A DNA stretch of 62,278 nucleotides from Candidatus Iainarchaeum sp. (GTDB taxonomy: Archaea > Iainarchaeota > Iainarchaeia > Iainarchaeales > JAFCCJ01), in contig JAFCCJ010000001.1 of the NCBI GenBank assembly GCA_017610305.1, positions 1-62,278 on the forward strand. Reading direction: 5' to 3'. A program made the position numbers and the translations under genes. Under the pieces are notes generated by a model. It was not told the origin of the DNA, made no database searches, and worked only from the letters and a program-made list of their open reading frames with translations. Shown here piece after piece: positions 6,924 to 58,078 of this stretch. Within the stretch, counting starts at the first letter, position 1, and the number at the start of each line of letters is the position of its first letter.

Positions 6924-6928
6924 GCTGA

Positions 6929-12751: not shown

Positions 12752-12755
12752 TGAT

Positions 12756-13601
12756 TTGGTAAATAATAAAACAGTTATCGGAATTATAGGCGGAACCGGG
12801 AAGATGGGAAAATGGTTCAGAAAATTCTTCGAGAAAAACGGCTGCAGGATTTTGGCGTGCGGAAAAAAAACCAAGTTAAAGCACAGGGAACTTATTGAGA
12901 AAAGCGACATTATAATATTCTCTGTTCCAATTGGCATAACTGTTGATTTGATTAAAAAATACGCAAAATTTGCCAAGAAAGGCCAGGCCATTACTGATTT
13001 CACCTCAATAAAGGAAGCGCCTTTGAAGGCAATGTTGCAGTACGCCCCCAAAGATGTTGAGGTTTTTGGCATGCACCCTGTTTTTGGGCCCAGTGTTTTA
13101 AACATTAAGGACCAGGCAGTAGTGCTTTGCCCGGGAAGAGGCAGAAAATGGTTTACCTGGATGAAAAAATTAATGCGAAAAAGAAAAGCGCATATTAAGG
13201 TGGTTAATGCAAGCAAGCATGATGAAATGATGGCTATAATCCAGGGCAGCACCCATTTTAGGACTATTTCATTTGAGAATGCGCTTAAAAAATTAGATTT
13301 TAATTTCGATGAAATGATTACCTTTGCCTCGCCAATCTACAAGGCGAGAATGCTTCTCCTTGGGAGAATAATGGTTCAGGATCCGGAACTATATGCGGAA
13401 ATACTTATTCAGAATAAAGATACCTTGAAGGTAGTAAGGCAGTTAAGAAAATCAACAAATGAACTGGAAAAGATAATCAAGAAAAAGGACAAGAAAGCGT
13501 TTGTAAAATATTTCAAAGAGTCTGCCTATATTGGAGCCCGTGCAAAAAATCTAGGAAAGCAAAGCGATAAACTGCTGAATAAATTAACTGAAGTCGACTG
13601 A
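12756..13601 (+). CDS. tyrA: Prephenate dehydrogenase
   Basis: N-terminal Rossmann IGIIGGTGKMGKWF. The track ORF begins at 12690 and overlaps the upstream ORF. A TTG at 12756, just after the upstream stop, is the more plausible start. Confidence 0.82.
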   Translation: MVNNKTVIGIIGGTGKMGKWFRKFFEKNGCRILACGKKTKLKHRELIEKSDIIIFSVPIGITVDLIKKYAKFAKKGQAITDFTSIKEAPLKAMLQYAPKDVEVFGMHPVFGPSVLNIKDQAVVLCPGRGRKWFTWMKKLMRKRKAHIKVVNASKHDEMMAIIQGSTHFRTISFENALKKLDFNFDEMITFASPIYKARMLLLGRIMVQDPELYAEILIQNKDTLKVVRQLRKSTNELEKIIKKKDKKAFVKYFKESAYIGARAKNLGKQSDKLLNKLTEVD

Positions 13602-13604
13602 ATC

Positions 13605-14267
13605 TTACGGGCAGCTTGTAGGATTAATTACGAAATCCTTGAGTACATATTCGTTGTTTGGCAGGTCTATTCTCAGTTCAACATCCGCAGGATCGGAGCC
13701 CAAATAAAGGGATTTTTCCTGGGTAGTAAAGACAAGTAGTTCACTATTTCCTGGTTTGATTGTGACGCTGAACTCAAATCCATCAAAGCTGTCTTCAAGC
13801 CCATCGGAATCTGAGTGGGCTGAAATCTCCCCGTCAATGACATAATCATCACTGCCATTGTTTTTCAGGTTAATGCTCTTGAGAATTGTTCCCTTAACAT
13901 TTTGCCCTTCCCAATTTGTGCTGAAACAAGCAAAGGTGTAATGGTTTATTATCCTTAAATCAGCCGCCTCTGTTGCGGGGTCCGGCTCAGGTTCCGGCTC
14001 CGGTTCCGGCTCAGGCTCTGGCTCAGGTTCTGGGTCTGGCGTAACATCTATGCCATTATCCAATGTTGCGGAATCGCCATCAATTGTAAAATCATCATCC
14101 ACCACACTTACAGTTGACCCACCATTGACGACAGGTGATGTCTCTACCCCTGTAGGGGAAGTTAACGCCAAAAATCCGACCACTCCGATTAGGAGAAATA
14201 TAACGATAAACAGCACGATTAATATTACTCCAATTCCGGTAAATGCAATAAGATACTTTGTTTCCAT
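13605..14267 (-). CDS. Membrane-anchored/secreted protein with a (Pro-Glu)n linker
   Basis: N-terminal hydrophobic helix ([29 protein letters not shown]), a [22 protein letters not shown] linker, and a C-terminal beta-rich domain ending in Cys. Confidence 0.6.
   Translation of the reverse strand: [220 protein letters not shown]
13977..14039 (-). repeat. Tandem hexanucleotide (GGYTCN)n repeat encoding PDP(EP)8DP
   Basis: Read directly: ggggtccggctcaggttccggctccggttccggctcaggctctggctcaggttctgggtctgg. Confidence 0.9.
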
Positions 14268-19461: not shown

Positions 19462-20730
19462 ATGGTGAAAATAATCCCATTTAAGGGTGTGCGTTACAAT
19501 TCAGAGACTATTGGGGACTTCTCAAAAGTCACATCCCCCCCATATGATGTCATTTCTTCTGAACATCAGGAGATGTACTATGAAAATAACCCATACAATA
19601 TTATAAGGCTGATTCTTGGAAAAAAAACTGAAAGTAATGGTGAGGGGAATAACCGCTATACCCGCGCCAAAAAATTCCTGGACGACTGGTTAAATGAAAA
19701 GGTTCTTGTGCAGGATGAGAAACCATGTGTTTACGTTTATGAGCAGGAGTTCCAAAGAAAGGGGGTCCCAAAAAGCAGAAAGGGATTTATTGCGCTTGCA
19801 AAACTCGAGCCATATTCCAACAGGATTGTACTCGGCCATGAGCGAACCCATCTTGCGCCCATAAAGGACAGGTTTGAGCTGATGAAGGCAACCAAGTGCA
19901 ATATGAGCCCCATTTTCTCCATCTATGAATCAGATAGGGGGAAGATTGATGGCATACTGGAAGAGGAAAGCAAAAAAGAGCCGGTTATTGATTTTAGCGA
20001 CAGGAAAAATGTAAAAAACAGGCTTTGGAGAATTGATGATGAGGACAAGATAAAATTAATTGCCGAAAAAATGGCCGGTAAAAAGATATTCATTGCAGAT
20101 GGGCACCACCGTTATGAGACGGCACTCCATTTCCGGGAGGAAAATGGTGCGGGTGTTGCAGATTATGTTATGATGATGTTCATCGACAGGAATAATCCTG
20201 GTTTAATTGTTATGCCAACCCACAGGCTGGTTTCCAATATTGAAAATTTTGACTCCAAAAAATTTATTGATGGCCTTGAAAAATACTTCTTGGTTGAGGA
20301 GACAAACAAGCATGAGCTGTTTGAGGAAATGGACAAAAACAGGGATAAAAACTGTTTTGGAATCCATGTTGGGAAGAGATTCTATCTCTTAAAACTAAAT
20401 GATTCCAAAATTATGAATGAACTAATGCCTGGAAAGTCTGATTCGCTGAAAAAACTTGATGTTTCTGTGTTGCATTCTGTTGTGCTGAAAAAGTTGCTCG
20501 GCATAAGTGATGGGGATATTAATCTGCAGAAAAATATTTCATATGTGAAATCCAAGCATGTTGCAGTCAGTGCCGTGGGAAGTGGCGAGGCACAAATTGC
20601 CTTCTTCCTTAACCCGACAAAGATAAGCGAGGTGACATCAGTTGCAATGGCTGATGAAAAAATGCCGCAGAAATCAACTTACTTCTTCCCCAAACTCATT
20701 ACGGGAATGGTAATTAACAAATTCGGATGA
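19462..20730 (+). CDS. DUF1015-family protein
   Basis: Characteristic IADGHHRYETAL motif. 422 aa. Confidence 0.8.
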   Translation: MVKIIPFKGVRYNSETIGDFSKVTSPPYDVISSEHQEMYYENNPYNIIRLILGKKTESNGEGNNRYTRAKKFLDDWLNEKVLVQDEKPCVYVYEQEFQRKGVPKSRKGFIALAKLEPYSNRIVLGHERTHLAPIKDRFELMKATKCNMSPIFSIYESDRGKIDGILEEESKKEPVIDFSDRKNVKNRLWRIDDEDKIKLIAEKMAGKKIFIADGHHRYETALHFREENGAGVADYVMMMFIDRNNPGLIVMPTHRLVSNIENFDSKKFIDGLEKYFLVEETNKHELFEEMDKNRDKNCFGIHVGKRFYLLKLNDSKIMNELMPGKSDSLKKLDVSVLHSVVLKKLLGISDGDINLQKNISYVKSKHVAVSAVGSGEAQIAFFLNPTKISEVTSVAMADEKMPQKSTYFFPKLITGMVINKFG

Positions 20731-22365
20731 TTATTGCTTCTTCTTTTTAGTGGGGGCTTTCTTCGCCACTTTTTTCTTCACCGGCTTCTTTGCTTTCGAA
20801 GCGGCGTCATTTTTCTTAGGCTTTGGTTTTGCCTTCTTCCCTGAAACGCCATTTCTCAAAATGGTGTTCAGCATTTTTTCAGTGGCGGCCACAGCAGCCA
20901 TTACCTGATCAGAATCAACACCAATTGTTGTAAACCTTTTTTCACCAAGATCCCAGACAATTTTGGTTTCCACAATTGCATCAGTATTTCCTCCAGGAGG
21001 AATCCTAACCTCATAATCAACAAGACTGGGGAGGGTTATTTTCATCTTCTTTGCCGCCTTGCCTAGGGCATTCATAAACGCATCATAGCCCCCATAGCCC
21101 TCGGCCTCCTCCTCAATTTCCTTTCCATTAAACGCAAGAACAAAAGAAGCTTTAGAGGTGACCCCTTTTCCACTGCTCACCGAGCATTTAATCATATTGA
21201 TTTTCTGTTCGGCAGGCCTTTTCAGCACGTCCTCAATTATATAGGGGAGGTCTTCCCTTGTCAATGTTTCCTTTTTGTCACCTAATTCAACAATTTTTTT
21301 TAGCACAAGGCTCTCCTGTTCAGGGGTGAGGTCAATTCCCAAAGCATTTAAATTCTGCTCCAGTGAAGCTTTTCCACTCAATTTTCCCAATGCATACTCC
21401 CTTTCCCGCCCAAATCTTTCCGGAATAAGCCTGTTTTGGTAAAGGCCGCCCTTTGCATCCCCGTCGGCGTGAATTCCAGCAGTCTGGGTAAAGACACTTT
21501 CCCCGATAATTGGCTTGTTTGATGAGACCCTTTTCCCTGAAAATGCCTCAACCATCTTGCTCAGGTTTGAAAGGGCCTTTTCATTGGCCTTTGTATTCAG
21601 GTCAGTGTGGTCATTAATGTTTGCAACCACTTCCTCCAAAGAGGCATTGCCGGTTCTCTCGCCCAAACCATTTACAGTAACATGGATTCCCCTTGCCCCC
21701 CCTTCCAGAGCCGCAAGAGAATTGGTTGTTGCCAGGCCATAATCATTATGGGCGTGGAAATCAAAATGAACCCCGTGGAAACTTCCGACAGTATTGGAGA
21801 TAAACCCCTCGGTTTCTTTAGGCATCAAAACCCCTAAAGTATCCGGAAGCAGAATTCTTTCAACATTCAAGGAAATAAGATGGGTTATAAGATTGAAAAC
21901 ATAATCCTGGCTTTTTGCCATGCCATTGCTCCAGTCCTCGAGATAAACATTGACAATCATTCCTGTTTCCTTGGCATATTCCACTGTTTTTTCTATATCC
22001 TGAAAATGCTGGTTTTCAGTCTTTTTTAGCTGCAGTGTAAGATGTTTCAATGAGCCCTTTGCAAGGAGGTTTATTGCATTTCCTCCGCAATTCCTCACCC
22101 AATCAACTGACTTTTTACCGTCAATAAAGCCCAAAACCTCGATATTTTCCAGATATCCGGCCTCATTTGCCCAACCACATACTGCTTTAACAGCCTCAGA
22201 TTCACCCTCAGAAACAAGAGCTGAGCCAATCTCAATTCTGTCGATTTTGGCCTCCAGAAGCAGCATTTTGGCAATATTAAGTTTTTCAGCAGGGGTAAAG
22301 GAAACCCCTTTGGTCTGTTCACCGTCTCTGAGCGTGGTATCCATCAATTCAACGAATTTTGCCAT
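20731..22365 (-). CDS. 2-isopropylmalate / (R)-citramalate synthase family enzyme (LeuA/CimA) with a Lys-rich C-terminal tail
   Basis: DRE-TIM motifs DTTLRDGEQ and HAHNDYGLA. LeuA-dimer-type regulatory domain. The last ~39 aa read GKKAKPKPKKNDAASKAKKPVKKKVAKKAPTKKKKQ. Confidence 0.88.
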   Translation of the reverse strand: MAKFVELMDTTLRDGEQTKGVSFTPAEKLNIAKMLLLEAKIDRIEIGSALVSEGESEAVKAVCGWANEAGYLENIEVLGFIDGKKSVDWVRNCGGNAINLLAKGSLKHLTLQLKKTENQHFQDIEKTVEYAKETGMIVNVYLEDWSNGMAKSQDYVFNLITHLISLNVERILLPDTLGVLMPKETEGFISNTVGSFHGVHFDFHAHNDYGLATTNSLAALEGGARGIHVTVNGLGERTGNASLEEVVANINDHTDLNTKANEKALSNLSKMVEAFSGKRVSSNKPIIGESVFTQTAGIHADGDAKGGLYQNRLIPERFGREREYALGKLSGKASLEQNLNALGIDLTPEQESLVLKKIVELGDKKETLTREDLPYIIEDVLKRPAEQKINMIKCSVSSGKGVTSKASFVLAFNGKEIEEEAEGYGGYDAFMNALGKAAKKMKITLPSLVDYEVRIPPGGNTDAIVETKIVWDLGEKRFTTIGVDSDQVMAAVAATEKMLNTILRNGVSGKKAKPKPKKNDAASKAKKPVKKKVAKKAPTKKKKQ

Positions 22366-22441: not shown

Positions 22442-24247
22442 CTACATTTTGAGGCGATTATGCTCTTCCTCGACCTTTTCCTTGAGATATGTGATGAATT
22501 CGTCCTTAAAACTCTCTAAACTGGATGTTTTGCCCTCTTCAAGGAATTCGGCAATTTTTTCCAGGAATACATTGCTCCCTATTACTAATGGCAATACGAC
22601 AAAATCAATCCCTTCATCATAAAGCCTGAGGGCATCGCGATAGTAATGGGCCCTTCCAAAAATTACTATTTTCGGGTTTACTTTTTTTGCATAATGTGCA
22701 AGGGGAATGGAATTCTCAACATCAGGAGTTGCCAAAATCAGGAGCTTTGCCTCATTAAGGCTTAGCCTTTGCCATATTTCCTCATTATCAACACTTCCGT
22801 AAAGGGCATGGATTTTATGGTCAATGCAATTAAACACCGCCTCGGAATCATGATCGACAACCACAATTGAATAATTGTCCTTCAATGCCTCTGCAACACT
22901 AAACCCCATCGTGCCTGCGCCAACAACCACAATATGCTTGCTTACTTTTGAGGGAATCTTGTCAAGCTTTTTTATTCGCCAATGAAATCTGGAGTGTGTT
23001 TTAAGCCCCGGAAAAAGCCTTAAGATAATCCTGTCCAGAATCTGGTAAAGCCTGCTTCCATTGTCCATTACATAGGGAGTTAAAACCATTGAAAGGGTGA
23101 TTGTGAAAATAATAAATGAATATATCCCATCACCAAGAATTCCTACAGTTGCGCTTGCGAGGATGAACGAGAACTCTGAAACCTGGGCAAGGCCAAACCC
23201 CACAAGCATTGCAATCCTTCCGCCATAGCCTGAGAAAAGGGTGATGAGATAGAAAATCAGGGGTTTTAGAATGAAAACCGTGCCAAGAATTATCAAAATT
23301 AATGGAAGGGATATTCCAAGGAAGCCGGGGGTTATCTGCAGGCCCAAGGTGACGAAAAAGATTGTCGCAAATAAATCCCTTGTTCCACGGACTTTGCTGT
23401 AAACCTCAAGGTTGTAGGGAAGTGTGGAAAGGGATATGCCTGCAATAAACGCCCCTACTGCTATCGGAAAATCCAGCACATATGCCAATATTATGAAAAG
23501 AAAACAGCTGGACATTCCCGCAAGGAAAAGAAGTTCGCTGGATTCAATCGCAAGCTTGAAAAGCGGCCGGTAAATATATTTGTTAAGTATGTATGCCACC
23601 GCAAGCAGCACCACAACCGAAAGAAACATCATCATCAGGGAGTTTGGTTCCAGCAGGCTCGCCAAAGCCACACCAGGCTGCAGTTTGCTGAAAAGTGGGA
23701 TTGCAAGTATAACCAATAAATCCTGAACAAGCAGGAAACCAATCATCAGCCGCCCCTGCAGTGAGTTGATAAGGTGCTTATCTGAAAGTATTTTCACCAC
23801 AACTGTTGTTGCACTGAAAGAAAGGATAACTCCCAAAAGTAAAGCTGTTTCAAGGGGAAGCAGGCCCGTCATAACTGTTGTAGCTATCACGAACAGTATT
23901 GTCAGGATGAACTGCATTATGCCGCCGAGAAGAACCACTTTTCCCATTTCTGCAAGCTTTGAAAAATCACTCTCAACACCAACACTGAACAATAAAAGCG
24001 CGACACCAATCTCGGAGAGGATTAATATTTCGGTGCCGATTTCCTGAATTCCAATAGGGATTTCCCCAATAGGGCTCGGGATGCTCAGACCCAAGGAGCC
24101 CAAAGCAAAAGGCCCCAAAAAAAGGCCTGCAACAATGAACGCAAGGAGCGGGGGCTGCTTGAAAATCTTCGCAAGGTAACTGAAAAAAGTGGCGGCAAGC
24201 AAAATCATGCCCAAATCAACTAACAAAGTAAGGTCAACCGGAACCAT
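22442..24247 (-). CDS. Kef-type monovalent cation:proton antiporter (CPA2) with a C-terminal RCK/TrkA-N domain
   Basis: ~12 TM segments followed by the Rossmann motif VVVGAGTMGFSVAEAL. 601 aa. Confidence 0.85.
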   Translation of the reverse strand: MVPVDLTLLVDLGMILLAATFFSYLAKIFKQPPLLAFIVAGLFLGPFALGSLGLSIPSPIGEIPIGIQEIGTEILILSEIGVALLLFSVGVESDFSKLAEMGKVVLLGGIMQFILTILFVIATTVMTGLLPLETALLLGVILSFSATTVVVKILSDKHLINSLQGRLMIGFLLVQDLLVILAIPLFSKLQPGVALASLLEPNSLMMMFLSVVVLLAVAYILNKYIYRPLFKLAIESSELLFLAGMSSCFLFIILAYVLDFPIAVGAFIAGISLSTLPYNLEVYSKVRGTRDLFATIFFVTLGLQITPGFLGISLPLILIILGTVFILKPLIFYLITLFSGYGGRIAMLVGFGLAQVSEFSFILASATVGILGDGIYSFIIFTITLSMVLTPYVMDNGSRLYQILDRIILRLFPGLKTHSRFHWRIKKLDKIPSKVSKHIVVVGAGTMGFSVAEALKDNYSIVVVDHDSEAVFNCIDHKIHALYGSVDNEEIWQRLSLNEAKLLILATPDVENSIPLAHYAKKVNPKIVIFGRAHYYRDALRLYDEGIDFVVLPLVIGSNVFLEKIAEFLEEGKTSSLESFKDEFITYLKEKVEEEHNRLKM

Positions 24248-30117: not shown

Positions 30118-30321
30118 TTAAGCATCATCTTCATAATACTGGTCAAACTCGCTTTCTTCCTCGAGGATTTGCTGCTTTTCGGTTTTGACCTTTAACCTTC
30201 CGCCCTGAACTACAACCATTAGGCCAATAGTGCATTCAGGGCATTCAAGATCGTCCCCTTCATCATACTCATTGATACTTAAATCAAAGTATTCCTTGCA
30301 CTCAGGACAGATTACTTTCAT
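30118..30321 (-). CDS. LysW/ArgW-like zinc-ribbon protein with an acidic C-terminal tail (candidate amino-group carrier / ligase substrate)
   Basis: CPEC-x19-CPEC ribbon, then GLMVVVQGGRLKV, then the acidic tail EEESEFDQYYEDDA. The ATG at 30321 (MKVICPEC) is preferred over the track start at 30339. Confidence 0.5.
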   Translation of the reverse strand: MKVICPECKEYFDLSINEYDEGDDLECPECTIGLMVVVQGGRLKVKTEKQQILEEESEFDQYYEDDA

Positions 30322-30418
30322 TATTCCCACCAAAAACACCTGTCAAACAATATTATTTACCGTACCCGTAAAATTTATAAAGTTAATTTTTCGGGCAGAA
30401 TTAGCATTTTGGCCCTGC

Positions 30419-33409: not shown

Positions 33410-33826
33410 ATGCGTAAAGTAATGGCTTTTGGGGCATTTGATATTCTCCATCCCGGGCACCTATATTATTTTAGGGAAGCGAAGAAATTGGGGGATGAAC
33501 TGATTGTTGTGGTTGCAACCGATTCCAATATTGAGAAATTGAAGGGTTCTGACCCCCTAAATGACCAGGAACAAAGGTTGGAAGTTGTGAAGGCGGTGAA
33601 ATCTGTTGATGATGCCATGCTTGGGAGTGAGGAGAATATGTTTGACATTATTTCTGAACTTAAGCCAGGGATTATTGCCCTGGGTTATGACCAAAAAGTT
33701 GATGGGAAAGGACTGAGGGCGTTCCTTGAAAAAAATAAAATTAATTCCGAAATTGTGAGAATTGGCGCATTTGAGGCTGAAAGGCATAAGAGTTCGCTGA
33801 TAAAGAAAAAGTTGGGAATTAGTTAA
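33410..33826 (+). CDS. ribL: FAD synthase (RibL-type cytidylyltransferase-family nucleotidyltransferase)
   Basis: GAFDILHPGH (HxGH) motif. ~138 aa, the archaeal RibL size and layout. Confidence 0.8.
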   Translation: MRKVMAFGAFDILHPGHLYYFREAKKLGDELIVVVATDSNIEKLKGSDPLNDQEQRLEVVKAVKSVDDAMLGSEENMFDIISELKPGIIALGYDQKVDGKGLRAFLEKNKINSEIVRIGAFEAERHKSSLIKKKLGIS

Positions 33827-34395
33827 ACAACCATCTTCTTTTCCTTCGCCCTTTTGTAAATGAACTTGAGAAATATTTTCGCAAACCTCGGGCCAAAGTA
33901 TTTCACCATTATTCCAGGGGTGAAATTCACTTCCACAACCAATGCCTCGTTATCTGACCTTATGAGGTCAACCGCACAAAGTTCAGCCCCCGCAATTGTT
34001 GCGGAATTGAGCACAATATCTTTATACTTCTCGGGAAAATCAACTAACCTGGGCCTTCCTCCCCTTGAAACATTTGACCTTAAATCATCTTCCCCGGCAA
34101 TCCTTCTCACAGCATATACTTCCTTTCCAACAACATAACATCTCAAATCCTCCCTGCCACTTTCCACAAATTTCTGAAGAAGGATAAATTCCTTGAAAAC
34201 CTGCAAAGTGTCAAGTATTGGGGTGAATTCCTGCTTGGAACTGGCAAACATCACACCCTTTCCCCCAAACCCGCTCAGCATTTTAACCACAATGGGATAA
34301 CCCATCTTTTCGGCAATCATAACCGCAGGAACTGTCCCCACGCAAAGCGCGGAATCAGGAATTGGCACCTTTATTTCGCTCAAAGCTTTTGACAT
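33823..34395 (-). CDS. RimK/LysX-type ATP-grasp ligase, catalytic (C-terminal) fragment
   Basis: Gly-rich loop VVKMLSGFGGKGV, RSNVSRGG and the Mg-site VVEVNFTPG. Same reading frame as 34420..34704, separated from it only by a TAG and 8 sense codons. Confidence 0.8.
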   Translation of the reverse strand: MSKALSEIKVPIPDSALCVGTVPAVMIAEKMGYPIVVKMLSGFGGKGVMFASSKQEFTPILDTLQVFKEFILLQKFVESGREDLRCYVVGKEVYAVRRIAGEDDLRSNVSRGGRPRLVDFPEKYKDIVLNSATIAGAELCAVDLIRSDNEALVVEVNFTPGIMVKYFGPRFAKIFLKFIYKRAKEKKMVV

Positions 34396-34419
34396 ATAAT
34401 ATTTGTGGTTGCTTAACTG

Positions 34420-34704
34420 CTAGGCCTCTGAACTTGTGGGGAGGTAAACCTCTGAACTCTGGAGGATGTCAAGAACCACTTCCCCGAAAACAAAATCCTC
34501 CGCAAATAATCTGGGGAGACATGCGTCGAATTTAGTTAAGTCGGTGTTTTTGTAGTAAAGCATGGGTTTTTTGCCGTTTAACTCAACCCGGATAGAAGTT
34601 AAGGGGACCAAAAGAACAGTTTCAAAGAGCCTCTTTCCCTCGGCAACAAAATACTGGCTTGCCTTGCCCAGGCTTTTGGAACCGCTTATTATCAGCAGCC
34701 TCAT
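34420..34704 (-). CDS. RimK/LysX-type ATP-grasp ligase, pre-ATP-grasp (N-terminal) fragment ending at an in-frame TAG
   Basis: 94-aa pre-ATP-grasp-like domain (MRLLIISG...). Its ATG overlaps the stop of the upstream gene (ATGA). Confidence 0.7.
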   Translation of the reverse strand: MRLLIISGSKSLGKASQYFVAEGKRLFETVLLVPLTSIRVELNGKKPMLYYKNTDLTKFDACLPRLFAEDFVFGEVVLDILQSSEVYLPTSSEA

Positions 34705-35540
34705 TCATTCCCCTTCTCATAGTAGTGTGATGCTATCATTGCCTCTATGCTCTTGCCCAAGGGTTTGTTGAAACGCTCAAAATCAATCACCGGATTGACG
34801 CCAATAACCCTTCCTGAAATCAGGTTCACAACCGCAATATCAAAGCCTATCGCCCTGCATGCCCGTAACGCGGTTTCCTTATCCTCACTTCCCAGAGAGG
34901 TTGAGATTAATTTTTCGGCATGCTCGAACTTATCCAGATTCCACTTTCTCTTCAAGCCCACAATTTCCTTTCCAACCACAATGCAGTAATTAAGGTCATC
35001 CTGAAAATACTCCTGAATCATCACGGCATCAATCTTTGATTTGAAGCTTGTGGAAACTGATTTTAGGTTCCTTTCCGACTCCACAACAATCTGCTGCATC
35101 TTCTTTTGCCCAACAAAAGTCTTGAAAACAAGCGGAAATTTGAATCCGTTTGAGGCCTGGCCTATAAGTTCAATTGAGGGAATTATGGTTGTTTTTGATA
35201 TGGGAATTTCCTTGCTTGCCAGAACTGAAAAAAGAAAGGGCTTGTTTGAGGAAATGTAATAACTCTCAGGCTTGAGCTGGCAGTAAATGCCTTTTTCAGT
35301 GAGCTCATCGAGGAAGGGCTCAACAAACTGCGTAAACTGCGGGCCTGCCTCAAGGTAAACTGAATCATATTTCCTGAAATTTATTTTGCCAATAACAATT
35401 TTTGTAAAATTGTCAGCAGTAAATAGGCCAATCTTATTTATCTTGATAAATGGAGCATTTTCAAACCCCTTATCAAGAAGGGCATTCTTAAGGCGTGCCA
35501 AATCTGGAGATTTTTCTTCGCCGATGATTACACAATTCAT
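34701..35540 (-). CDS. RimK-like ATP-grasp-fold protein with degenerate catalytic motifs
   Basis: RimK-like length and N-terminal domain. The Gly-rich loop is replaced (VFKTFVGQKKMQQ) and the E-x-N Mg site reads GVNPV. Confidence 0.65.
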   Translation of the reverse strand: MNCVIIGEEKSPDLARLKNALLDKGFENAPFIKINKIGLFTADNFTKIVIGKINFRKYDSVYLEAGPQFTQFVEPFLDELTEKGIYCQLKPESYYISSNKPFLFSVLASKEIPISKTTIIPSIELIGQASNGFKFPLVFKTFVGQKKMQQIVVESERNLKSVSTSFKSKIDAVMIQEYFQDDLNYCIVVGKEIVGLKRKWNLDKFEHAEKLISTSLGSEDKETALRACRAIGFDIAVVNLISGRVIGVNPVIDFERFNKPLGKSIEAMIASHYYEKGNE

Positions 35541-35558: not shown

Positions 35559-37088
35559 TCAGAGGATTTTTTTTGCCTTTTTGTCAGGCTTCCAAATCCT
35601 CTTCAGGCGCTTTTCCCCCTCAAGCGCGTTGAAAACATGTTCAGAAAGCAATTCATTTATTGTCTCGTTCTTCCTTATCAGCTTCCTCAGATATCTTTCG
35701 AAAGATTTGCTAAGTTCCTTATAGGAGGAAACATCTGAGTAAATCAGCCCTTCAGAAATTCTCCAATGGGCGGAACTGCCTTTCATCGCAAATACCAAAT
35801 AACCTCGTTTTTTGTCAATCTCGCTCATCGCATCTTCCAAAAGCCTGAAATCGACAAGATAAACTCCGGCTGTTGACTTGCTTGGGTCCATTATCACAAG
35901 TTCATCTTCCTCAATACCGACACAAAGCACATAATGGCCCCGCCCTGTTGATGTCTTAAACAACGCAGGCTTGTTAAACCACAGGATTAATAGTGCCCCT
36001 TCCGCTAACCATGTTTTCAGTTCCTCCTTTAAATCATTGATTTCATCATACCTAACCAAGACCCCTTTGGCCTGGTTGTTTGTTGCCTTTAAAACCGCGG
36101 CAATTAATTTCTTGGGCCCTGTTCCGCCAGGCACCTTGGTATTTGCAAACTTCCCTATTTCCTCCTGGGTGGTATCAAAGCCAAAGAAGGAAAGCATCAT
36201 GGAGGCGGAAGCGGGTCCGCAATAGGCGGGAATCTGGGCGACAAAATTAGACCTTATATTTTCCAGGCGAAGGATGTCCTGCTTTGTCCTTTTGATGTAA
36301 ATCCTTTCATTAATTAATTCGCTGCTTGGTATGAGAAGATTAAAGCCTGTTGGGAGGCGCAACAAAACCCCCTGGCTTGTCATTCCAATCACTTCCCCTG
36401 CATCATCCTTTACCTTAATCATTTGTCCCGGCTTGATGAGTTTTCTTTCGATATAAATTCCCGCGAAGAAATTCGCAAGAAGGTCTTTTGAAACATAATA
36501 AAGCAGGGCAACACTCAAAAGGACAAATCCGTAGGTGATTGCAATCAATATTTGGTCAATAAACGGCACACTCATGTTTACGAGATTAAGGGAAACGCTG
36601 AAAAGTATGAGAAACAGGAAGACCTTTACAATCACAAGTATGTTGTTGAACACCCCTACTGAAATTCCGGCCTCATCAAGGTATTCATCAAACCCAATTC
36701 TTAAAAGCGCTGTTCGCAGTATGTCGATGAGAAGATTTATCAGGATAAATCCAACAAACATGAGGAGGAGAAGGCTGATTATGTTTGGGCTGATATTCAG
36801 CAGGCCGATGAATATGTCCTGCGCGGCATTGAAGCCAAGGAAGTTCAGGGCCAGAATTATTGAAAGGAAGAAGATGAACCATTCAAGCATTCTCTGGAAG
36901 GAGCGTATTGTTTTTCCTGAACCTGTCAGGAAATTCCTGCCAAAAAAGTTCATTGCCCTGCCTAAAATCTTTGCCACAATAATGCCTAGGAAAATGGCAC
37001 CTATCGCAAGAACCAGCTGCTCAACTGCGGGGTTCCCCAATACCTGGGTGTAATCATTCAGATTGAACAGTGCATCGAAATCTACCAT
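35559..37088 (-). CDS. Membrane protein fusing an MscS-like channel core to a C39-like (papain-fold) cysteine peptidase domain
   Basis: ~5 TM segments. MscS TM3/beta signature LANFFAGIYIERKLIKPGQMIKV..GEVIGMT..GVLLRLPTGFNLLIPSSELI. Then QIPAYCGPASASMML (Gln285/Cys290) and GRGHYVLCVGIEEDELVIMDP (His385). Confidence 0.7.
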   Translation of the reverse strand: MVDFDALFNLNDYTQVLGNPAVEQLVLAIGAIFLGIIVAKILGRAMNFFGRNFLTGSGKTIRSFQRMLEWFIFFLSIILALNFLGFNAAQDIFIGLLNISPNIISLLLLMFVGFILINLLIDILRTALLRIGFDEYLDEAGISVGVFNNILVIVKVFLFLILFSVSLNLVNMSVPFIDQILIAITYGFVLLSVALLYYVSKDLLANFFAGIYIERKLIKPGQMIKVKDDAGEVIGMTSQGVLLRLPTGFNLLIPSSELINERIYIKRTKQDILRLENIRSNFVAQIPAYCGPASASMMLSFFGFDTTQEEIGKFANTKVPGGTGPKKLIAAVLKATNNQAKGVLVRYDEINDLKEELKTWLAEGALLILWFNKPALFKTSTGRGHYVLCVGIEEDELVIMDPSKSTAGVYLVDFRLLEDAMSEIDKKRGYLVFAMKGSSAHWRISEGLIYSDVSSYKELSKSFERYLRKLIRKNETINELLSEHVFNALEGEKRLKRIWKPDKKAKKIL

Positions 37089-37107
37089 TTAATCACATTA
37101 AATGATT

Positions 37108-37126
37108 GTCTTTATTAATATTTATT
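37108..37126. promoter_or_regulatory. AT-rich divergent promoter candidate (TATA-like on both strands) in the 52-bp spacer
   Basis: gtcTTTATTAATATTTATTac lies 15-33 nt upstream of the + ATG (37141) and 20-38 nt upstream of the - ATG (37088). This suggests leaderless transcripts in both directions. Confidence 0.3.
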
Positions 37127-37140
37127 ACTTACTATCCTTA

Positions 37141-37953
37141 ATGAAACTCCTAATTCTTTCTGTGGAGACACAATGGGAAATTAACCGGATTCGTGAAGAG
37201 GCCGAAAAAAAAGGCCATTTGGTTAGTGAGAAAAAGCCCTCGGAATTTGATGAAAAAGAACTTGATGATTTTGACGCAGTCCTTTTTCGTGCTATAAAGG
37301 GAGAGGGGAAAAGGGCAAAGGAAATTGCCGTAAAAGCCAAGAAAAGGGGAATTACTGTTATTGACCGGAAATTGGGAATGGGAAAAGCGGTGACAAAACT
37401 CGCAATTTACTCTCAAATGAAAAAAGCAGGATACTATGTTCCGAAAACTATGCCACTAAATAAGGCTGATTTGGGGAAATTGAAGGAATTCCCGCAGGGG
37501 GAGATTGTTGTGAAATCAACAAGGGGAAAAAGGGGGCAGGATTTATACAAATGCGATAGGGATAATCTAAAAAACCTGATTCCAAAACTGAAAGAAGATG
37601 AAAGATACATTGTTCAGGAATTTGTCAGGATTGAAAAGGAGTACAGGGTTTTTGTTATAGGAGGAATGGTTTACGGCACCTATTCCAAACAATCCAGGGA
37701 CTGGAGGCACAATGTTTCTTTGGGGGCGAAAGTTGTTGAGGAGGAACTAGGGGAGAATGAGGAAATGGTTGCGTTGAAAGCGTTTGAACTGAGCGGGAAT
37801 GACATTGCGGGAATTGATTTGGCCGTCACTCCGAAGGGTTTGTTTGTTCTCGAGGTGAATCGCAGTCCCGGCTTCAAGGGCTTTGAGGAAGCAACTGGGA
37901 AAAACGCGGCGGGGGAAATTGTGGATTTTATTGAGGAGCAAGTTGGGGAATGA
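37141..37953 (+). CDS. RimK/LysX-type ATP-grasp ligase
   Basis: Motifs VVKSTRGKRGQD, WRHNVSLGA and LEVNRSPG. The ATG at 37141 (MKLLILS) is preferred over the track start at 37102. Confidence 0.8.
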   Translation: MKLLILSVETQWEINRIREEAEKKGHLVSEKKPSEFDEKELDDFDAVLFRAIKGEGKRAKEIAVKAKKRGITVIDRKLGMGKAVTKLAIYSQMKKAGYYVPKTMPLNKADLGKLKEFPQGEIVVKSTRGKRGQDLYKCDRDNLKNLIPKLKEDERYIVQEFVRIEKEYRVFVIGGMVYGTYSKQSRDWRHNVSLGAKVVEEELGENEEMVALKAFELSGNDIAGIDLAVTPKGLFVLEVNRSPGFKGFEEATGKNAAGEIVDFIEEQVGE

Positions 37954-37957
37954 GGAA

Positions 37958-39148
37958 TTAATTATTTTCTTTTTTCGACAATTCAATAAGAAGTTTTTTT
38001 GTCTTTTTCAGTTCATTTATCGTGATTGATTCTTCAGGGGAATGAGCATGCTCCCCTCCAGGCCCAAAACTTACTGTCAAAACTCCAATCCTTGCAATAA
38101 ACCTTCCATCAGTCCCCCCCAAATCACAGGCCAGTTCGGCCTTCTTTCTGAAAACCTTTTTAACGACTCCGGCAAATTCCTTCACAAATTCGTGGTCCTT
38201 ATTAACAAAGTAACCATTGGTCCCTGTCATTGTAATCCTTCCCTTGATTTTATGCTTTTTCATCAGCTTTTTCGCAAATCTCCTGAATTCATTCATAACT
38301 TTCTTTACCCTCTCCTCAGGAAGTGCGCGGATGTCAAAACCAACAACAAAGCCTGAAGGGATTATGTTGGATTTCATTCCTGAACGTACAATAGTGATAT
38401 TGAACCTGCCCCAGACTTTCTTATGCGGGGCAAAGCTCGGGGCATTAATGATTGAAACTGCCTTTGACCTTTTCTTTTCATATTCTTTTAAGGATTCCAA
38501 AAACGGCAGAACCTTGTGGACAATATTAGGATGCCTGAAAGGGTATGCCGCATGCCCCCCTATACTTTTGAAATTGATTCTGCCCCTTATCACTCCACTA
38601 CATCCAATCCCGACATGATGGGAAGTGGAATCCATAACTAAACATACACATTTTTCAGGATTGAATTTCTTGCCATGCTTTTCGGCAAGAAATTTGATTC
38701 CATGGCCCCCTCCTATTTCCTCATCGCAGGAAACTACAAGTATTATATTTTTTTTACAATCCATTTCCTTTAACTCGCGCATTGCCCCCATTGATATGGC
38801 AATCGCCCCCTTATCATCGGCAACACCAAGGCCCATCAACTTATTTCCTTCCCTTCTCATCTTATTGGGTTTTCTTTTCCATGCCTCTCGGGAGAGAACA
38901 ACATCAAAGTGGGTTGCAATAACCAGATTTTCCTTTGCCCCGCGGTCCATCGTAATCAGCAAATTTGGCCTTGGCTTTTTGTCCTTTGCATTTGACCTTA
39001 GAACCTCGACCTCAAAACCCAACGAGCGTGCTTCCTTTGCGATAAAATCAGTTATTGCCACATAATTTGACTTGGTCTGGACATCTGTATTGAAATCAAC
39101 CAGCTTGCTTAGGAGGGAAAGTTCATACCTTAATGAATCTTTTTTCAT
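37958..39148 (-). CDS. M20-family metallohydrolase (ArgE/DapE/LysK-like deacylase), paralog 1
   Basis: Motifs ATHFDVV, GVADDKGA and SCDEEIGG. 396 aa. Confidence 0.85.
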   Translation of the reverse strand: MKKDSLRYELSLLSKLVDFNTDVQTKSNYVAITDFIAKEARSLGFEVEVLRSNAKDKKPRPNLLITMDRGAKENLVIATHFDVVLSREAWKRKPNKMRREGNKLMGLGVADDKGAIAISMGAMRELKEMDCKKNIILVVSCDEEIGGGHGIKFLAEKHGKKFNPEKCVCLVMDSTSHHVGIGCSGVIRGRINFKSIGGHAAYPFRHPNIVHKVLPFLESLKEYEKKRSKAVSIINAPSFAPHKKVWGRFNITIVRSGMKSNIIPSGFVVGFDIRALPEERVKKVMNEFRRFAKKLMKKHKIKGRITMTGTNGYFVNKDHEFVKEFAGVVKKVFRKKAELACDLGGTDGRFIARIGVLTVSFGPGGEHAHSPEESITINELKKTKKLLIELSKKENN

Positions 39149-39159
39149 TTCAACACACC

Positions 39160-40488
39160 CTAAAAATATTTCTCAAGCAGACTCTCGGTTCTCCCCACGC
39201 TTCTTAAGTAATTCTCGGCGAATTTAACCGAAATTTCCCCTGCAAATTCAGGGGTAATTCCTTTGGCAGGATTAAATCCCTTGGATTTTGAATATGATAA
39301 AATTTCATCAGAGAGGCTTTTTTCCTCACTAACTATATTGAAGACAGGTTTTGCAATCTGCATTTTATTTTTCGGGATGCAGGTTTTCGCAAATGAGAAA
39401 AAACGTTTTACATAGTCCTTTGCACTCTTGCTTTCGAAACCGTTTTTTGCCGACCTATACTGGAGATTGTTCCTTACATAAGTGTGCGGGGGGATATAAA
39501 GGATATTTCCCTCCCTTTTGAATGGCTCTTCCAAACCGATATCAGAGGGGACCACCTGCAAAAAATTGGTTTGGATTTCCTCCAGAACATAATTCAAAAC
39601 AGCAGTCATGCCCATAACATTATCCAGGTTATTCATGTCAATGCCCCTTTGCTCAAGGGTATCATGCTTGTTCACACGAACAGGGCCCCAAAACAAGTCC
39701 AATTTTGATTTATATGGCCAGTTCCTATTCGGATTCATGCCGTGCTTTTTCATAATTCCCTTCCAGATAATGTTTCTTCGGTTAATTGAATGCCTTAGGT
39801 CTGCAAGGGTTTGTTTATAGGGGGGAAGGGCGCCAAAAATCGGGAGCTTGGAGTATAATCCTGCCCCATATTTTAACTTTCTCCCTCCGCGATAAACCAG
39901 GGCGCGGGAGTCCTTTGCAAGATGCCCCAATTCATAGAATGGGGAGGAGGCCATAACTGTAAGCAAAACAGGATCGGCCGCAATCAGGAAATTGTAGGCA
40001 TTCATCATCGAACTTTTGAGTTTGGAATTTATCAGCCTTTTAAGTACAAGTTTCTCCTTGTCCATTACCCCTTTCGGCATTGTGAAATGAAAGTGAAAAC
40101 CAACGCACTTGCCCGCGAGCCTGAATTTATTCGCGCCGAAAATTTTCTTTTTTATCCCATATCCATTGCCGCTGCGCATATCGGTTTTATTCTTCCCGGG
40201 ATAGCAGCTAAGCGGGAGCAACAGGGTATCATTCTTTTCCGCGGCCTCAATCAATGCCCTTACAGCTGACAGCATTTCATTTATTGTTTCATTGGGTTCA
40301 GGCTTTGGGTAATTATTCAGCTCAACCATGCCTTTGGAACATTCCTTTGCAAGTTGCGCCTTTGGGTCAATCTTAACGGCATCCTTAAGGATTTTATCGG
40401 CATTGAAAACCAGCTTTCCGGATTCATTAATCAGGAAGTACTCAAATTCCAGGCCTGAATGAAAAATTTTGAGGGGCTTTTTTGCCAT
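39160..40488 (-). CDS. GCS2-family carboxylate-amine ligase (gamma-glutamyl-type ligase)
   Basis: N-terminal GLEFEYFLINESG pattern and the overall length and layout of glutamate-cysteine ligase family 2 / YbdK-like enzymes. Confidence 0.7.
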   Translation of the reverse strand: MAKKPLKIFHSGLEFEYFLINESGKLVFNADKILKDAVKIDPKAQLAKECSKGMVELNNYPKPEPNETINEMLSAVRALIEAAEKNDTLLLPLSCYPGKNKTDMRSGNGYGIKKKIFGANKFRLAGKCVGFHFHFTMPKGVMDKEKLVLKRLINSKLKSSMMNAYNFLIAADPVLLTVMASSPFYELGHLAKDSRALVYRGGRKLKYGAGLYSKLPIFGALPPYKQTLADLRHSINRRNIIWKGIMKKHGMNPNRNWPYKSKLDLFWGPVRVNKHDTLEQRGIDMNNLDNVMGMTAVLNYVLEEIQTNFLQVVPSDIGLEEPFKREGNILYIPPHTYVRNNLQYRSAKNGFESKSAKDYVKRFFSFAKTCIPKNKMQIAKPVFNIVSEEKSLSDEILSYSKSKGFNPAKGITPEFAGEISVKFAENYLRSVGRTESLLEKYF

Positions 40489-40492
40489 TGAT

Positions 40493-41659
40493 TCACCTTA
40501 CAAGTTCCTTAACCAATTCTTTTGTCTTTCTAAGTTCATAAATAGATATTGATTCTTCCGGGGCATGGGGATTCTTTCCCCCGGGAGTAATTGCGATTGC
40601 GGGAATTCCCAATTTTGCGATGAACCTGCCATCAACCGCCCCCAACTCAACAACCTTCTCCAATTTCCTTCCCAAAATTTTCTCCGACTTTTTTGCAACT
40701 TCCTCCACATAAGGATTATCTTTCTCAATCACATAACCGTCGCTCCCTTTGATGGTTATTCTTCCGCGCAGATTGTGTTTTTTTAATTTTCCCGCCACAA
40801 ATGTCTTGAATTCTTTAATTATCTCCTTGATATTTTCTTCAGGAAGCGCGCGGATATCAAAACCAATCCGAAGTGAGCTTGGGATGATGTTTGTTTTATG
40901 CCCGGCATTAAGCATTGTCACCGAAAACCGCCCCCATACATTCTTGTGCAATGAGCCAGATGGGGCCGGCGCCCATGATTTTTTCTTTTCCCTGAGTTTT
41001 CCATATTTAAGCAAATCATCCATAAAAGGAATCGCATCATGGACAACGTTGCGTGTCTTGTGCGGATAACCAGCATGCCCCTGCTCCCCCTTAAGGTGAA
41101 TGTGCCCCATTGCGGTTCCGCTGCATCCGATTCCAACATTCATAAAATCCTTGTCCATCACAATGCAGAAATCGGAGCTTAAATCTTCCCTATTGTTCAC
41201 AATTAATTTTCTCAGGCCGTTTTCTCCCCCCACTTCCTCATCACAGGCAACAAGGAGTTTAACATTCCTGCGACAATTTCCTTTTTTTAGTTCCTTAAGC
41301 GCGCCCATTGCCGCAGCTATTGCCCCCTTGTCATCACAGGCCCCCCTTCCTATAAGCAGTTTCCCTTTTCTTCGCAGCCTGAATGGATCTGATTTCCATC
41401 CTTCCCCTGCAGGCACAACATCATAATGGGTTGCAAGAAGAAGGGTTTCTTTGGCCTTTTTGTTCAGAGTAATAAAAAGATTGGAGCAGAACTTTTCCTC
41501 AGAGGATTTGTATCTGATGGTTTTTGCCCTTAATCCCAACTTTTTTGCCTCTTTTTTCAGCAATTGCACAATTTTTCCATAATTGGTTTTTTTCTCAGAA
41601 TCCGTGTTCAAGGCGACCAATTTGCGAAGTAAGTCGATTTCGTAACGCATTTCGTCCAT
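40493..41659 (-). CDS. M20-family metallohydrolase (ArgE/DapE/LysK-like deacylase), paralog 2
   Basis: Motifs ATHYDVVP, GACDDKGA and ACDEEVGG. Clearly paralogous to 37958..39148. Confidence 0.85.
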   Translation of the reverse strand: MDEMRYEIDLLRKLVALNTDSEKKTNYGKIVQLLKKEAKKLGLRAKTIRYKSSEEKFCSNLFITLNKKAKETLLLATHYDVVPAGEGWKSDPFRLRRKGKLLIGRGACDDKGAIAAAMGALKELKKGNCRRNVKLLVACDEEVGGENGLRKLIVNNREDLSSDFCIVMDKDFMNVGIGCSGTAMGHIHLKGEQGHAGYPHKTRNVVHDAIPFMDDLLKYGKLREKKKSWAPAPSGSLHKNVWGRFSVTMLNAGHKTNIIPSSLRIGFDIRALPEENIKEIIKEFKTFVAGKLKKHNLRGRITIKGSDGYVIEKDNPYVEEVAKKSEKILGRKLEKVVELGAVDGRFIAKLGIPAIAITPGGKNPHAPEESISIYELRKTKELVKELVR

Positions 41660-47890: not shown

Positions 47891-47976
47891 AATTTATCGC
47901 CTCTTTCTTTATTTGCCCGAAAGGCTAGTTCGGTTCCGAAGGAACCGGACGTCGTGTACCCATAGATAGACGGGTA

Positions 47977-48060
47977 TGCACGGGGGCGGATTCGAACCGT
48001 CGAACGCACTAAGCGACAGGATCTTGAGTCCTGCGGGTTTGGCCGCTTCCCTACCCGTGC
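47977..48060 (-). tRNA. tRNA-Leu (anticodon CAA), class II, no intron, no encoded CCA
   Basis: Hand-folded. Acceptor GCACGGG/CCCGTGC, anticodon stem CAGGA/TCCTG with loop CTCAAGA, a long variable arm, and T-loop TTCGAAT. Confidence 0.85.
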
Positions 48061-48107
48061 ATCACTAAAAAATAGCCTTAAACAACTAATAAAAACCCTG
48101 CGGATTG

Positions 48108-57911: not shown

Positions 57912-57925
57912 AAGCGCAGGGGACG
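57912..57925. repeat. Direct repeat copy 2 (overlaps the tRNA-Ser 3' end)
   Basis: AAGCGCAGGGGACG. 57915..57925 are the last 11 nt of the tRNA. Confidence 0.7.
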
Positions 57926-58078
57926 AGATTCGAACTCGCGCGAGCAAAGCTCAACGGCTTACTACAACCGAAAATATGTATTAATAATGGTCCGAAGGAC
58001 CATTGACATACTTCGGTACAACCGCTCGAAAGCGGTTTTTTAGCAGGCCGCCGCGTTAGGCCACTCCGCCACCCCTGC
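57915..58078 (-). tRNA. tRNA-Ser (anticodon GCT) with an ~81-nt intron at the canonical 37/38 position
   Basis: Hand-folded. Acceptor GCAGGGG/CCCCTGC, anticodon stem GCGGC/GCCGT with loop CTGCTA|intron|A, a variable arm, and T-arm GCGAG-TTCGAAT-CTCGT. Exons are 38 + 45 nt. Confidence 0.85.
57960..58040 (-). other. tRNA-Ser intron (boundaries +/- 1-2 nt because of flanking A runs)
   Basis: Contains hairpin AACCGC-TTTCGA-GCGGTT and a long stem ACCGAAGTATGT...ACATATTTTCGGT enclosing ATGGTCC-TTCG-GGACCAT. Confidence 0.7.

Follow-up and report, generated by a model that had tools for sequence, protein, structure and literature searches.

What would a protein that joins a membrane channel to a peptidase do at the head of an operon of glutamate ligases? 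The question is raised by a gene at 35559..37088 (minus strand) of Candidatus Iainarchaeum sp. (assembly GCA_017610305.1, contig JAFCCJ010000001.1), within a stretch of 62,278 nucleotides that was analysed as a whole and is here called the window. Its product of 509 amino acids (aa), followed by a stop codon, is composed of a core of the type found in the mechanosensitive channel MscS, a papain-fold peptidase and a helical tail. A first-pass annotation, made from the sequence alone, had already proposed such a fusion; its translation of the 509-aa frame proved exact, and its codon positions for Cys290 and His385 were correctly calculated. That an MscS-type channel core is here joined to a cytoplasmic papain-fold peptidase we regard as practically certain.

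The channel half begins with five transmembrane (TM) helices (aa 1-200; 36489..37088, minus), recognised by hydropathy, the positive-inside rule, the family profile and Foldseek. Hydropathy and the positive-inside rule place them at aa 22-44, 67-86, 99-124, 148-170 and 177-200, with four Lys/Arg residues in the loop 45-66 and none in the outside loops, as the rule demands. The resulting topology, with which the AlphaFold model agrees, is N-out and C-in, and the peptidase is therefore cytoplasmic, which settles the side of the membrane that the first-pass annotation had left to be predicted. TM1-TM2 resemble the paddle of MscS, TM3-TM4 are extra helices resembling PF05552, and TM5 corresponds to the pore helix TM3a. 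Next come the amphipathic helix TM3b and the MscS beta-domain (aa 201-266; 36291..36488, minus), where the Pfam model MS_channel_2nd (PF00924) scored 22.2 bits over aa 202-263 against a cutoff of 20.2; MS_channel_1st_1 (aa 89-135) reached 20.7 bits, under its cutoff of 22. Across 31 family members these two models matched 28 (best E 1.8e-9) and 17 sequences, respectively. A sequence search of the PDB with the single protein gave no match, a family profile being required; the profile matched MscM (E 4e-10), MscS (1.4e-9), a 171-aa mini-MscS (9seh; 4.6e-5) and the phytochelatin-synthase-like enzyme Alr0975 (7.5e-4), with positions 11-89 aligned to TM1-TM2 of MscS and positions 180-260 to TM3 and the beta-domain.

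In the full-length AlphaFold model (predicted local distance difference test, pLDDT, 78) the five long helices are followed by a beta-domain (223-266), an alpha/beta domain (285-435) and the helical tail. When it was compared with the PDB by Foldseek, the N-terminal part retrieved MscS, YnaI, MSL1, MSL10 and the miniature MscS of T. cruzi, and the C-terminal part retrieved PeiR, Alr0975 and ComA/PCAT1. The marginal Pfam score of the channel half is not a matter of chance, since the family profile matches MscM and MscS and Foldseek matches each half independently. Within the stretch formed by TM3b and the beta-domain, N206 corresponds to N117 and G210 to G121 of EcMscS, and the motifs K219-x-G221-Q222 and P254 are also found. 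In an unbiased set of 46 sequences, composed of the window protein and 45 full-length representatives (430 aa or more) recovered by an exhaustive search, G221 is kept in all 46, P254 in 44 and N206 in 40. The five helices and the pore-helix and beta-domain signature read in the first-pass annotation are thus upheld by hydropathy, Pfam, the family profile and Foldseek alike. What the protein shares with MscS is the paddle-like TM1-TM2, a TM3a/b with conserved Asn and Gly, and the beta-domain; what sets it apart is a 245-aa enzyme module past the beta-domain, two additional TM helices and a pore helix that is not Gly/Ala-rich. The fusion protein would assemble, probably as an MscS-like heptamer.

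Neither the alpha/beta vestibule nor the C-terminal barrel of MscS is present: the vestibule model (MS_channel_3rd, PF21082) gave no Pfam match in the fusion protein or in the 31 family members, and in the models the papain-fold module starts directly after the beta-domain. The peptidase had been described in the first-pass annotation as standing in place of the vestibule; the absence of the vestibule holds, but its replacement does not, since it was probably already missing in the ancestor. The next-best matches to the family profile are proteins of 175-326 aa (E 1e-25 to 1e-14) that cover profile positions of about 58-262 and stop within about 10 residues of the beta-domain. Because these nearest non-fused relatives end right after the beta-domain, the vestibule was probably absent before the fusion, which would have joined the peptidase to an already miniature channel. 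Among solved structures, mini-MscS chains of 171-174 aa (seven chains per entry) match the family profile through the beta-domain only, and the miniature channels TcMscS (PDB 9bgq) and 9seh resemble the fusion protein in likewise having no vestibule. A vestibule-less channel is plausible, because the mini-MscS relatives stop after the beta-domain and because TcMscS, with a minimal part of the EcMscS fold, retains mechanosensitive channel activity (PMC12334622). A split-gene form of the fusion was considered and rejected, since the stand-alone archaeal mini-MscS genes closest to it have no C39 or RimK neighbours in their loci; a 277-aa peptidase-only match (P0067) was likewise discarded, being a fragment of a split 505-aa gene and not a separate peptidase. 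Two mini-MscS genes (6696..7391 in locus L072 and 3416..3907 in locus L073) are each followed by two small genes (76-150 aa) for proteins with the AsnC/RAM domain, an amino-acid-binding regulatory fold.

The enzyme half consists of a linker helix and a papain-fold Cys-His-Asp domain (aa 267-435; 35784..36290, minus) that resembles C39_2 peptidases, phytochelatin synthase and PeiR, followed by a family-specific tail (aa 436-509; 35562..35783, minus) which is helical in the models and in which W442-R, Y456, LSKSFERYL and W499-K-P are conserved. The predicted nucleophile Cys290 is encoded at 36219..36221, the predicted general base His385 at 35934..35936, the third triad residue Asp401, within an MDP motif, at 35886..35888, and Gln285, a putative oxyanion-hole residue within Q-x4-C, at 36234..36236 (all minus). 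In a sequence alignment to the pseudomurein endoisopeptidase PeiR, Cys290 falls on Cys90 (PDB entry 8z4n is the C90A mutant), His385 in the shared GHY motif and Asp401 in the DP of the ADP motif of PeiR. Among Pfam models, Peptidase_C39_2 (PF13529) scored 47 bits over aa 285-402 against a cutoff of 24, Peptidase_C39 (PF03412) was marginally over its cutoff of 22 with 25.2 bits, and Phytochelatin (PF05023) reached 24.7 bits against 24.9, over positions 109-209 of its hidden Markov model (HMM) only. Of the 31 family members, 31 were matched by the first of these models, 29 by the second and, at E below 0.01, 10 by the third.

Modelled alone (pLDDT 83, predicted template modelling score 0.82), the C-terminal module was matched by Foldseek to PeiR with E 6e-8, a root-mean-square deviation of 2.3 A and 24% identity over 159 columns, to the acyl-enzyme of Nostoc Alr0975 with E 7e-8 over about 180-200 columns, and to the double-glycine peptidase domains of ComA, PCAT1 and LahT with TM-scores of 0.64-0.69 normalised to the target; the Foldseek probability was 1.00 for PeiR, Alr0975, ComA, PCAT1 and 3erv. 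The enzymes of the C39, C39_2, C83 and C71 families (Alr0975, PeiR, ComA/PCAT1) therefore have the same fold as the fusion protein, with an aligned Cys-His-Asp triad and, in the fusion protein, an upstream Gln. It differs from this papain-fold cluster in its extra conserved helical tail and in that roughly a third of its own family is catalytically dead. Gln285-x4-Cys290, His385 and the following Asp had all been pointed out in the first-pass annotation, and both halves of the protein came through the HMM and structure comparisons, with a papain fold and Cys/His dyad on one side and an MscS-type core on the other. The C39 label given at that stage needs qualification. It is right as to the papain/C39_2 fold, but the module is not a minimal 140-aa C39 domain; at about 245 aa it has the size of phytochelatin synthase and PeiR, with the conserved helical tail in addition, and on the evidence of the models it is nearer in size and shape to enzymes of small non-ribosomal peptides than to minimal leader peptidases.

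The architecture is a recurrent one. A word-indexed search returned 51 homologous clusters with lengths near 500 aa and identities as low as 35%, and most of the named homologues carry the database label "C39 family peptidase". When 1.84 billion representatives were searched exhaustively with an HMM, there were 63 matches at E 1e-30 or better, 45 of them full-length, and in GTDB species genomes the fusion was found in 59 loci, all archaeal, so that the search for the same architecture called for in the first-pass annotation places it across the DPANN archaea. The hosts are Iainarchaeota (Diapherotrites), Micrarchaeota, Nanohaloarchaeota (including complete Nanosalina genomes) and Woese-/Nanoarchaeota, and the closest relative of the window locus lies in a Candidatus Iainarchaeum metagenome-assembled genome (94% protein identity, about 80% DNA identity).

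Conservation of the catalytic residues is best judged from the unbiased set, in which Cys290 and His385 are each present in 32 of the 46 sequences, the same 14 (about 30%) having lost both. An apparent invariance of these residues in 62 sequences was discarded as circular, because the patterns by which these loci were collected themselves included CGPASA and H[YF][VS]LC. In the inactive members Cys is typically replaced by Ser, and His by Arg, Ser or Lys. Gln285, invariant in set A1, is kept in 34 of 46, while Asp401 (44/46), Y456 (43/46) and W499 (40/46) are more widely retained and G429-Y430 also persist. The pseudo-peptidase subfamily, 14 representatives among P0071-P0097, has lost Cys, His and Gln and retained the channel core, Asp401 and the tail. 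For two members of the inactive group, P0209 and P0210, the loss of Cys and His was confirmed residue by residue, and pseudo-peptidase genes are located at 7001..8518 in locus L070 and 3188..4702 in locus L071. A metagenome scan with the inactive subfamily found nothing, and the loci of this subfamily came from a protein search. From its residues, the window protein is to be placed in the catalytically intact majority of the family.

The fusion gene heads an operon of RimK-type ATP-grasp genes, as had been recognised in the first-pass annotation. After a gap of 18 nt comes RimK_A (34701..35540, minus; PF08443, E 6e-11), which overlaps by 4 nt (ATGA) with RimK_B (33823..34704, minus), an active-type homologue of RimK alpha-L-glutamate ligases that matches the RimK_N and RimK Pfam models. 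On the other side, beyond a divergent AT-rich region of 52 bp, lies RimK_C (37102..37953, plus; probable start 37141), a third, divergently transcribed member of the RimK family that scored 145 bits with TIGR00768 against a cutoff of 143.4. All three ATP-grasps are nearest to true RimK structures (7qyr, 7qys, 4iwx) and not to LysX or ArgX: RimK_A matched 7qyr with E 6e-7, the RimK_B orthologue of locus L001 the same entry with E 1e-30, and RimK_C 7qys with E 1e-17. The D...E-x-N motif for Mg/ATP is missing from RimK_A and from all 34 of its orthologues that cover this region; it is kept in 36 of 37 RimK_B sequences and, as E-x-N, in 16 of 16 RimK_C sequences. RimK_A is therefore a conserved pseudo-ligase.

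Among 55 informative loci, these being non-redundant and having enough downstream DNA, 31 including the window show the order fusion, RimK_A, RimK_B. They span Iain-, Micr- and Nanohaloarchaeota, and RimK_A always follows directly after the fusion gene. Accessory genes are more variable: RimK_C was found in 13 of these 31 core loci, M29 in 8, FGase in 7, GCS2 in 6 and M20 in 6, and M20, M29, FGase or GCS2 genes recur variably beside the core genes in other loci. The dead-peptidase proteins P0209 and P0210 also head operons of fusion, RimK_A, RimK_B and FGase, with a true RimK_A orthologue (E 1e-31). Since members with a dead peptidase keep the operon, the association with the ligases must be physical or regulatory and not only catalytic, and the papain domain must therefore also bind or scaffold. 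A functional partnership of the fusion protein with the RimK pair is, in our estimation, likely.

On these grounds we propose that the fusion protein would form an MscS-like oligomer that serves as a membrane platform on which the RimK_A/RimK_B pair docks. Its papain domain would bind the glutamyl peptide or glutamyl tail built by the ligases and, in the active subfamily to which the window protein belongs, would cleave or transfer this glutamyl product. With the active sites placed directly under an MscS-type pore, turnover of glutamyl peptides could be tied to tension in the membrane, to an outflow of glutamate or short oligo-glutamates, or to both. To the proposal as a whole, a membrane complex that binds and cleaves ligase-made glutamyl peptides beneath an MscS-type pore, we give a probability of about 0.45. 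The identification of glutamyl peptides as the substrate is tentative, its chances falling a little short of even, and the coupling of the peptidase to tension or efflux is possible though rather unlikely. Processing coupled to release and a tension- or ligand-gated peptidase, the two functions suggested in the first-pass annotation, are both live hypotheses.

Precedents exist for several parts of this scheme. MscCG is an MscS-like dedicated glutamate exporter (PMC6110860) and thus sets a precedent for glutamate efflux through an MscS-type pore. In bacteria RimK makes poly-alpha-glutamate and adds Glu tails, which RimB trims (PMC11957051), and the fusion peptidase may be the functional analogue of RimB; the likeness to the RimK/RimB(/RimA) systems, a RimK-type ligase encoded beside an antagonistic peptidase, is one of function and not of homology. 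In the Rlo operon, which has a hypo-osmotic phenotype affecting tolerance, an ATP-grasp is encoded together with a multi-TM protein whose transglutaminase domain has a papain fold and is inactive (PMC11957051). Rlo so shares with the present locus a TM protein, a papain-superfamily domain and an ATP-grasp, the inactive RloB domain being comparable to the inactive subfamily of the fusion. There are differences in each case. RimB and RloA are retropepsin-like aspartic proteases, whereas the fusion peptidase has a papain fold; RloB has its domain in the periplasm and a 7-TM part unlike MscS, whereas the papain domain of the fusion protein is cytoplasmic with its catalytic residues intact; and, unlike RimK/RimB and Rlo, the system described here has a dead RimK paralogue as an obligate extra partner, and archaeal hosts.

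Several observations weigh against the proposal. The other 24 of the 55 informative loci belong without exception to the Woese-/Nanoarchaeal clade; in them a fusion gene that looks active stands in variable contexts and no RimK adjoins it, so that the fusion protein can work without a neighbouring ligase. Both Cys and His are lost in 14 of the 46 unbiased representatives, and hydrolysis is therefore not a function that all family members share. In EcMscS the helix TM3a is rich in Gly/Ala; the pore helix of the fusion protein is bulkier than this and less conserved, with A194/Y198 in the places of the gate positions L105/L109. The ion-transport neighbours of the gene (NhaP-TrkA_N, Trk and a canonical MscS) may represent nothing but conserved synteny. 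Finally, RimK_B of the window carries in the assembly an in-frame TAG at 34420..34422 (minus) that splits it into open reading frames (ORFs) of 94 and 190 aa. In the 94%-related orthologue of locus L007 this site encodes Tyr, with flanks about 90% identical, and from this comparison the TAG looks like a single-base nonsense change, an assembly error or a population variant, and not like gene decay.

The alternative that survives best is a scaffold without conductance, in which a remnant of MscS would only oligomerise and tether the papain domain, and through it the RimK pair, to the membrane, and the enzyme would trim, for instance, glutamate tails on a cytoplasmic or membrane-proximal protein. 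The poor conservation of the pore helix and its lack of Gly/Ala are what this explanation would predict, the pseudo-peptidase subfamily and the pseudo-ligase partner point to scaffolding, and at least one genome (L003) also has a canonical vestibule-bearing MscS. Such a remnant would hardly be expected to keep the gating motifs of TM3b and the beta-domain as strongly as the counts for N206, G221 and P254 show, its paddle-like TM1-TM2 still align with MscS, and miniature MscS channels of reduced fold do conduct (PMC12334622). We consider the scaffold unlikely, and yet a serious rival. At the opposite extreme, the proposed complex could be extended into a prokaryotic "chanzyme", a heptameric MscS-type pore above a cage of seven papain-fold amidases with a docked RimK/pseudo-RimK pair, in which tension would switch between polymerisation of glutamate into osmotically silent oligo-glutamate and its depolymerisation or venting. 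In the ultra-small cells of DPANN archaea such a device would serve both to buffer osmotic changes and as a valve, and the dead subfamily would work as pure sensor or adaptor; this extension is speculative and quite improbable.

A role in thiol metabolism was weighed next, with the papain domain as a gamma-glutamylcysteine dipeptidyl (trans)peptidase acting on the products of a GCS2-like ligase and the channel releasing or sensing thiols. The near-cutoff Phytochelatin score, the ten family members that match this model, and the place of the Alr0975 acyl-enzyme structures among the top Foldseek matches all lean this way, and the window locus has a gene for a GCS2-like carboxylate-amine ligase (39160..40488, minus). 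The Pfam match of this product is weak, however, at 22.1 bits, GCS2 is present in only 6 of the 31 core loci, and the invariant partners are RimK-type ligases, for which reasons there is little likelihood of a thiol role.

The comparison drawn in the first-pass annotation was with the C39 domains of ABC exporters, which remove double-glycine leaders. In such a PCAT-like system the C39 domain would cut the leader of a ribosomal peptide modified by the ATP-grasps, for export through the MscS-type pore. Peptidase_C39 is over its Pfam cutoff, the domains of ComA, PCAT1 and LahT are structural matches, and in PCAT transporters the C39 domain is likewise cytoplasmic and attached to a membrane conduit. 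The conduit of the fusion protein is a channel, however, and not an exporter; the protein has no ABC domain and so is unlike the exporter-fused C39 proper, and export would be without an energy source. The ATP-grasps are of the RimK alpha-glutamate-ligase type and not of the peptide-cyclising graspetide/microviridin type, and the top structural matches, PeiR and Alr0975, act on small or non-ribosomal peptides. Furthermore, 30% of the family is without the catalytic dyad, and the two such members that were checked retain the operon. No double-glycine precursor was found: a clustering of 802 small ORFs, drawn from about 60 loci, brought out none that was conserved family-wide, the clusters being clade-specific only (Spt4, S27e, Zn-ribbons and one single-TM protein), and the small ORFs adjoining the fusion gene showed no recognisable double-glycine leader. 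As no conserved precursor peptide came to light in these loci, leader processing is unsupported, as is the earlier comparison, and we hold the PCAT-like explanation to be very improbable.

Two groups of small genes deserve mention. Directly downstream of RimK_C, six loci that belong to one subclade encode a Zn-ribbon protein of 82-93 aa (FCPxCGS...C..C.FYGF) whose C terminus is rich in Lys/Glu (L001 14130..14378, L016 4319..4594, L018 12153..12422, L020 5317..5571, L022 12221..12502 and L023 10365..10520); the window has no such gene. In some Woese-/Nanoarchaeal loci without RimK neighbours (L038, L041, L044, L045, L048-L051, L053 and L065) two small genes lie about 250-960 bp upstream of the fusion gene on the opposite strand, the first for a single-TM protein of about 55 aa ending ...KVLTSEEYKVKGQYDK and the second for a Zn-ribbon of about 40 aa (MVKCPHCGK...) with an acidic end.

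A third type of Zn-ribbon is found in the window at 30118..30339 (minus), with a CPxC...CPxC pattern and a long acidic C-terminal tail; the proteins are of 66-73 aa across five Iainarchaeal loci, in which the gene sits 2.4-4.5 kb from the operon (the other four being L008 15732..15962, L009 6674..6883, L014 6896..7099 and L026 14351..14557). It could be a target for tailing by RimK-type ligases, its only tie to the operon being shared synteny. That this protein is a LysW-type carrier, charged by the RimK/LysX-like ligases and relieved of its product by the peptidase or an M20 enzyme, as in the LysW-mediated synthesis of lysine or arginine, has next to nothing to recommend it, and the LysW-like tail, a candidate substrate of the first-pass annotation, is unsupported in that role. 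The protein does match Zn_ribbon_LysW weakly (16.1 bits against a cutoff of 27), like genes recur near the operon in the four other loci and the M20 enzymes resemble LysK at the family level; but about 3.5 kb, with housekeeping ORFs resembling tyrosyl-tRNA synthetase and a cytidylyltransferase, separate the gene from the end of the operon, it is missing from most core loci, the C-termini vary (EDDA, VEED, SDYE, DDDE, YDES) and have no EDWGE-type end such as that of LysW, the ligases score 100 bits against the LysX equivalog cutoff of 275.6 and are closer to RimK, and the locus has no LysZ, LysY or LysJ genes.

Of the remaining genes near the operon, two M20 peptidases were identified by Pfam just past RimK_C, on either side of the GCS2-like gene, at 37958..39148 and 40493..41659 (both minus). 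Several lineages have ion and osmolyte genes at 2-12 kb from the fusion gene, namely NhaP-type Na/H exchangers with TrkA_N, TrkA/TrkH, a canonical vestibule-bearing MscS, and sucrose-phosphate synthase with its phosphatase (22442..24247, minus, in the window; L001 19695..21476; L002 516..2636 and 12422..13891; L003 190..3439; L005 4316..5533). They hint at an osmotic theme, but as evidence of an osmotic role they were set aside as too weak, the gene order being shared synteny within Iainarchaeota. The PADLOC defence models gave no match for the fusion protein, the RimK proteins or GCS2, and the locus is not a known defence system. A scan for sigma-70 promoters and terminators returned fewer sites than in shuffled sequence, the bacterial consensus being irrelevant for an archaeon. 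Elsewhere in the window, Rfam matched a tRNA at 57915..58078 (minus) over all 71 positions of the model spread across 164 nt, which suggests an intron of about 90 nt; this tRNA was not called by ARAGORN, which in turn called a tRNA-Leu(CAA) at 47976..48061 (minus) that is not in the Rfam scan at gathering threshold. The segment at 56-58 kb has the lowest GC content of the window (0.33 against about 0.42). At 19462..22365 a DUF1015 protein (320 bits) adjoins a LeuA/homocitrate-synthase-like gene (HMGL-like, HCS_D2, LeuA_dimer); amino-acid biosynthesis is generally limited in DPANN archaea, and the presence of the latter gene may be unusual.

Both domains of the fusion protein are well known and its homologues are already public under a generic peptidase name; it is for the architecture itself that no published description was found. 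The accessory domains described for MscS channels serve, to our knowledge, in regulation or binding, examples being cyclic-nucleotide-binding, EF-hand and periplasmic domains. No NCBIfam model covers the family, the two best matches reaching 18.5 bits (cutoff 100) and 13.4 bits (cutoff 150). A full-text literature search, in which papain-like peptidases were covered by a survey of 2023 and MscS-like channels by a review of 2026, with Iyer et al. 2009 on amidoligases lying outside its scope, retrieved no report of an MscS::enzyme fusion, in agreement with the first-pass annotation, in which no channel::C39 architecture was known. In the present family an enzyme forms the cytoplasmic part of a channel core, and a whole archaeal superphylum has conserved this fusion. 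The bacterial RimK/RimB and Rlo systems are poorly understood, and the locus represents a compact and testable counterpart to them in archaea. It comes with controls provided by nature, the ligase paralogue that is dead and the subfamily whose peptidase is dead, by which scaffold and catalytic roles can be separated. If the two halves of the protein communicate, they would form a direct link from membrane mechanics to peptide chemistry, and would offer a handle on glutamate and osmotic balance in the genome-reduced cells of DPANN archaea.

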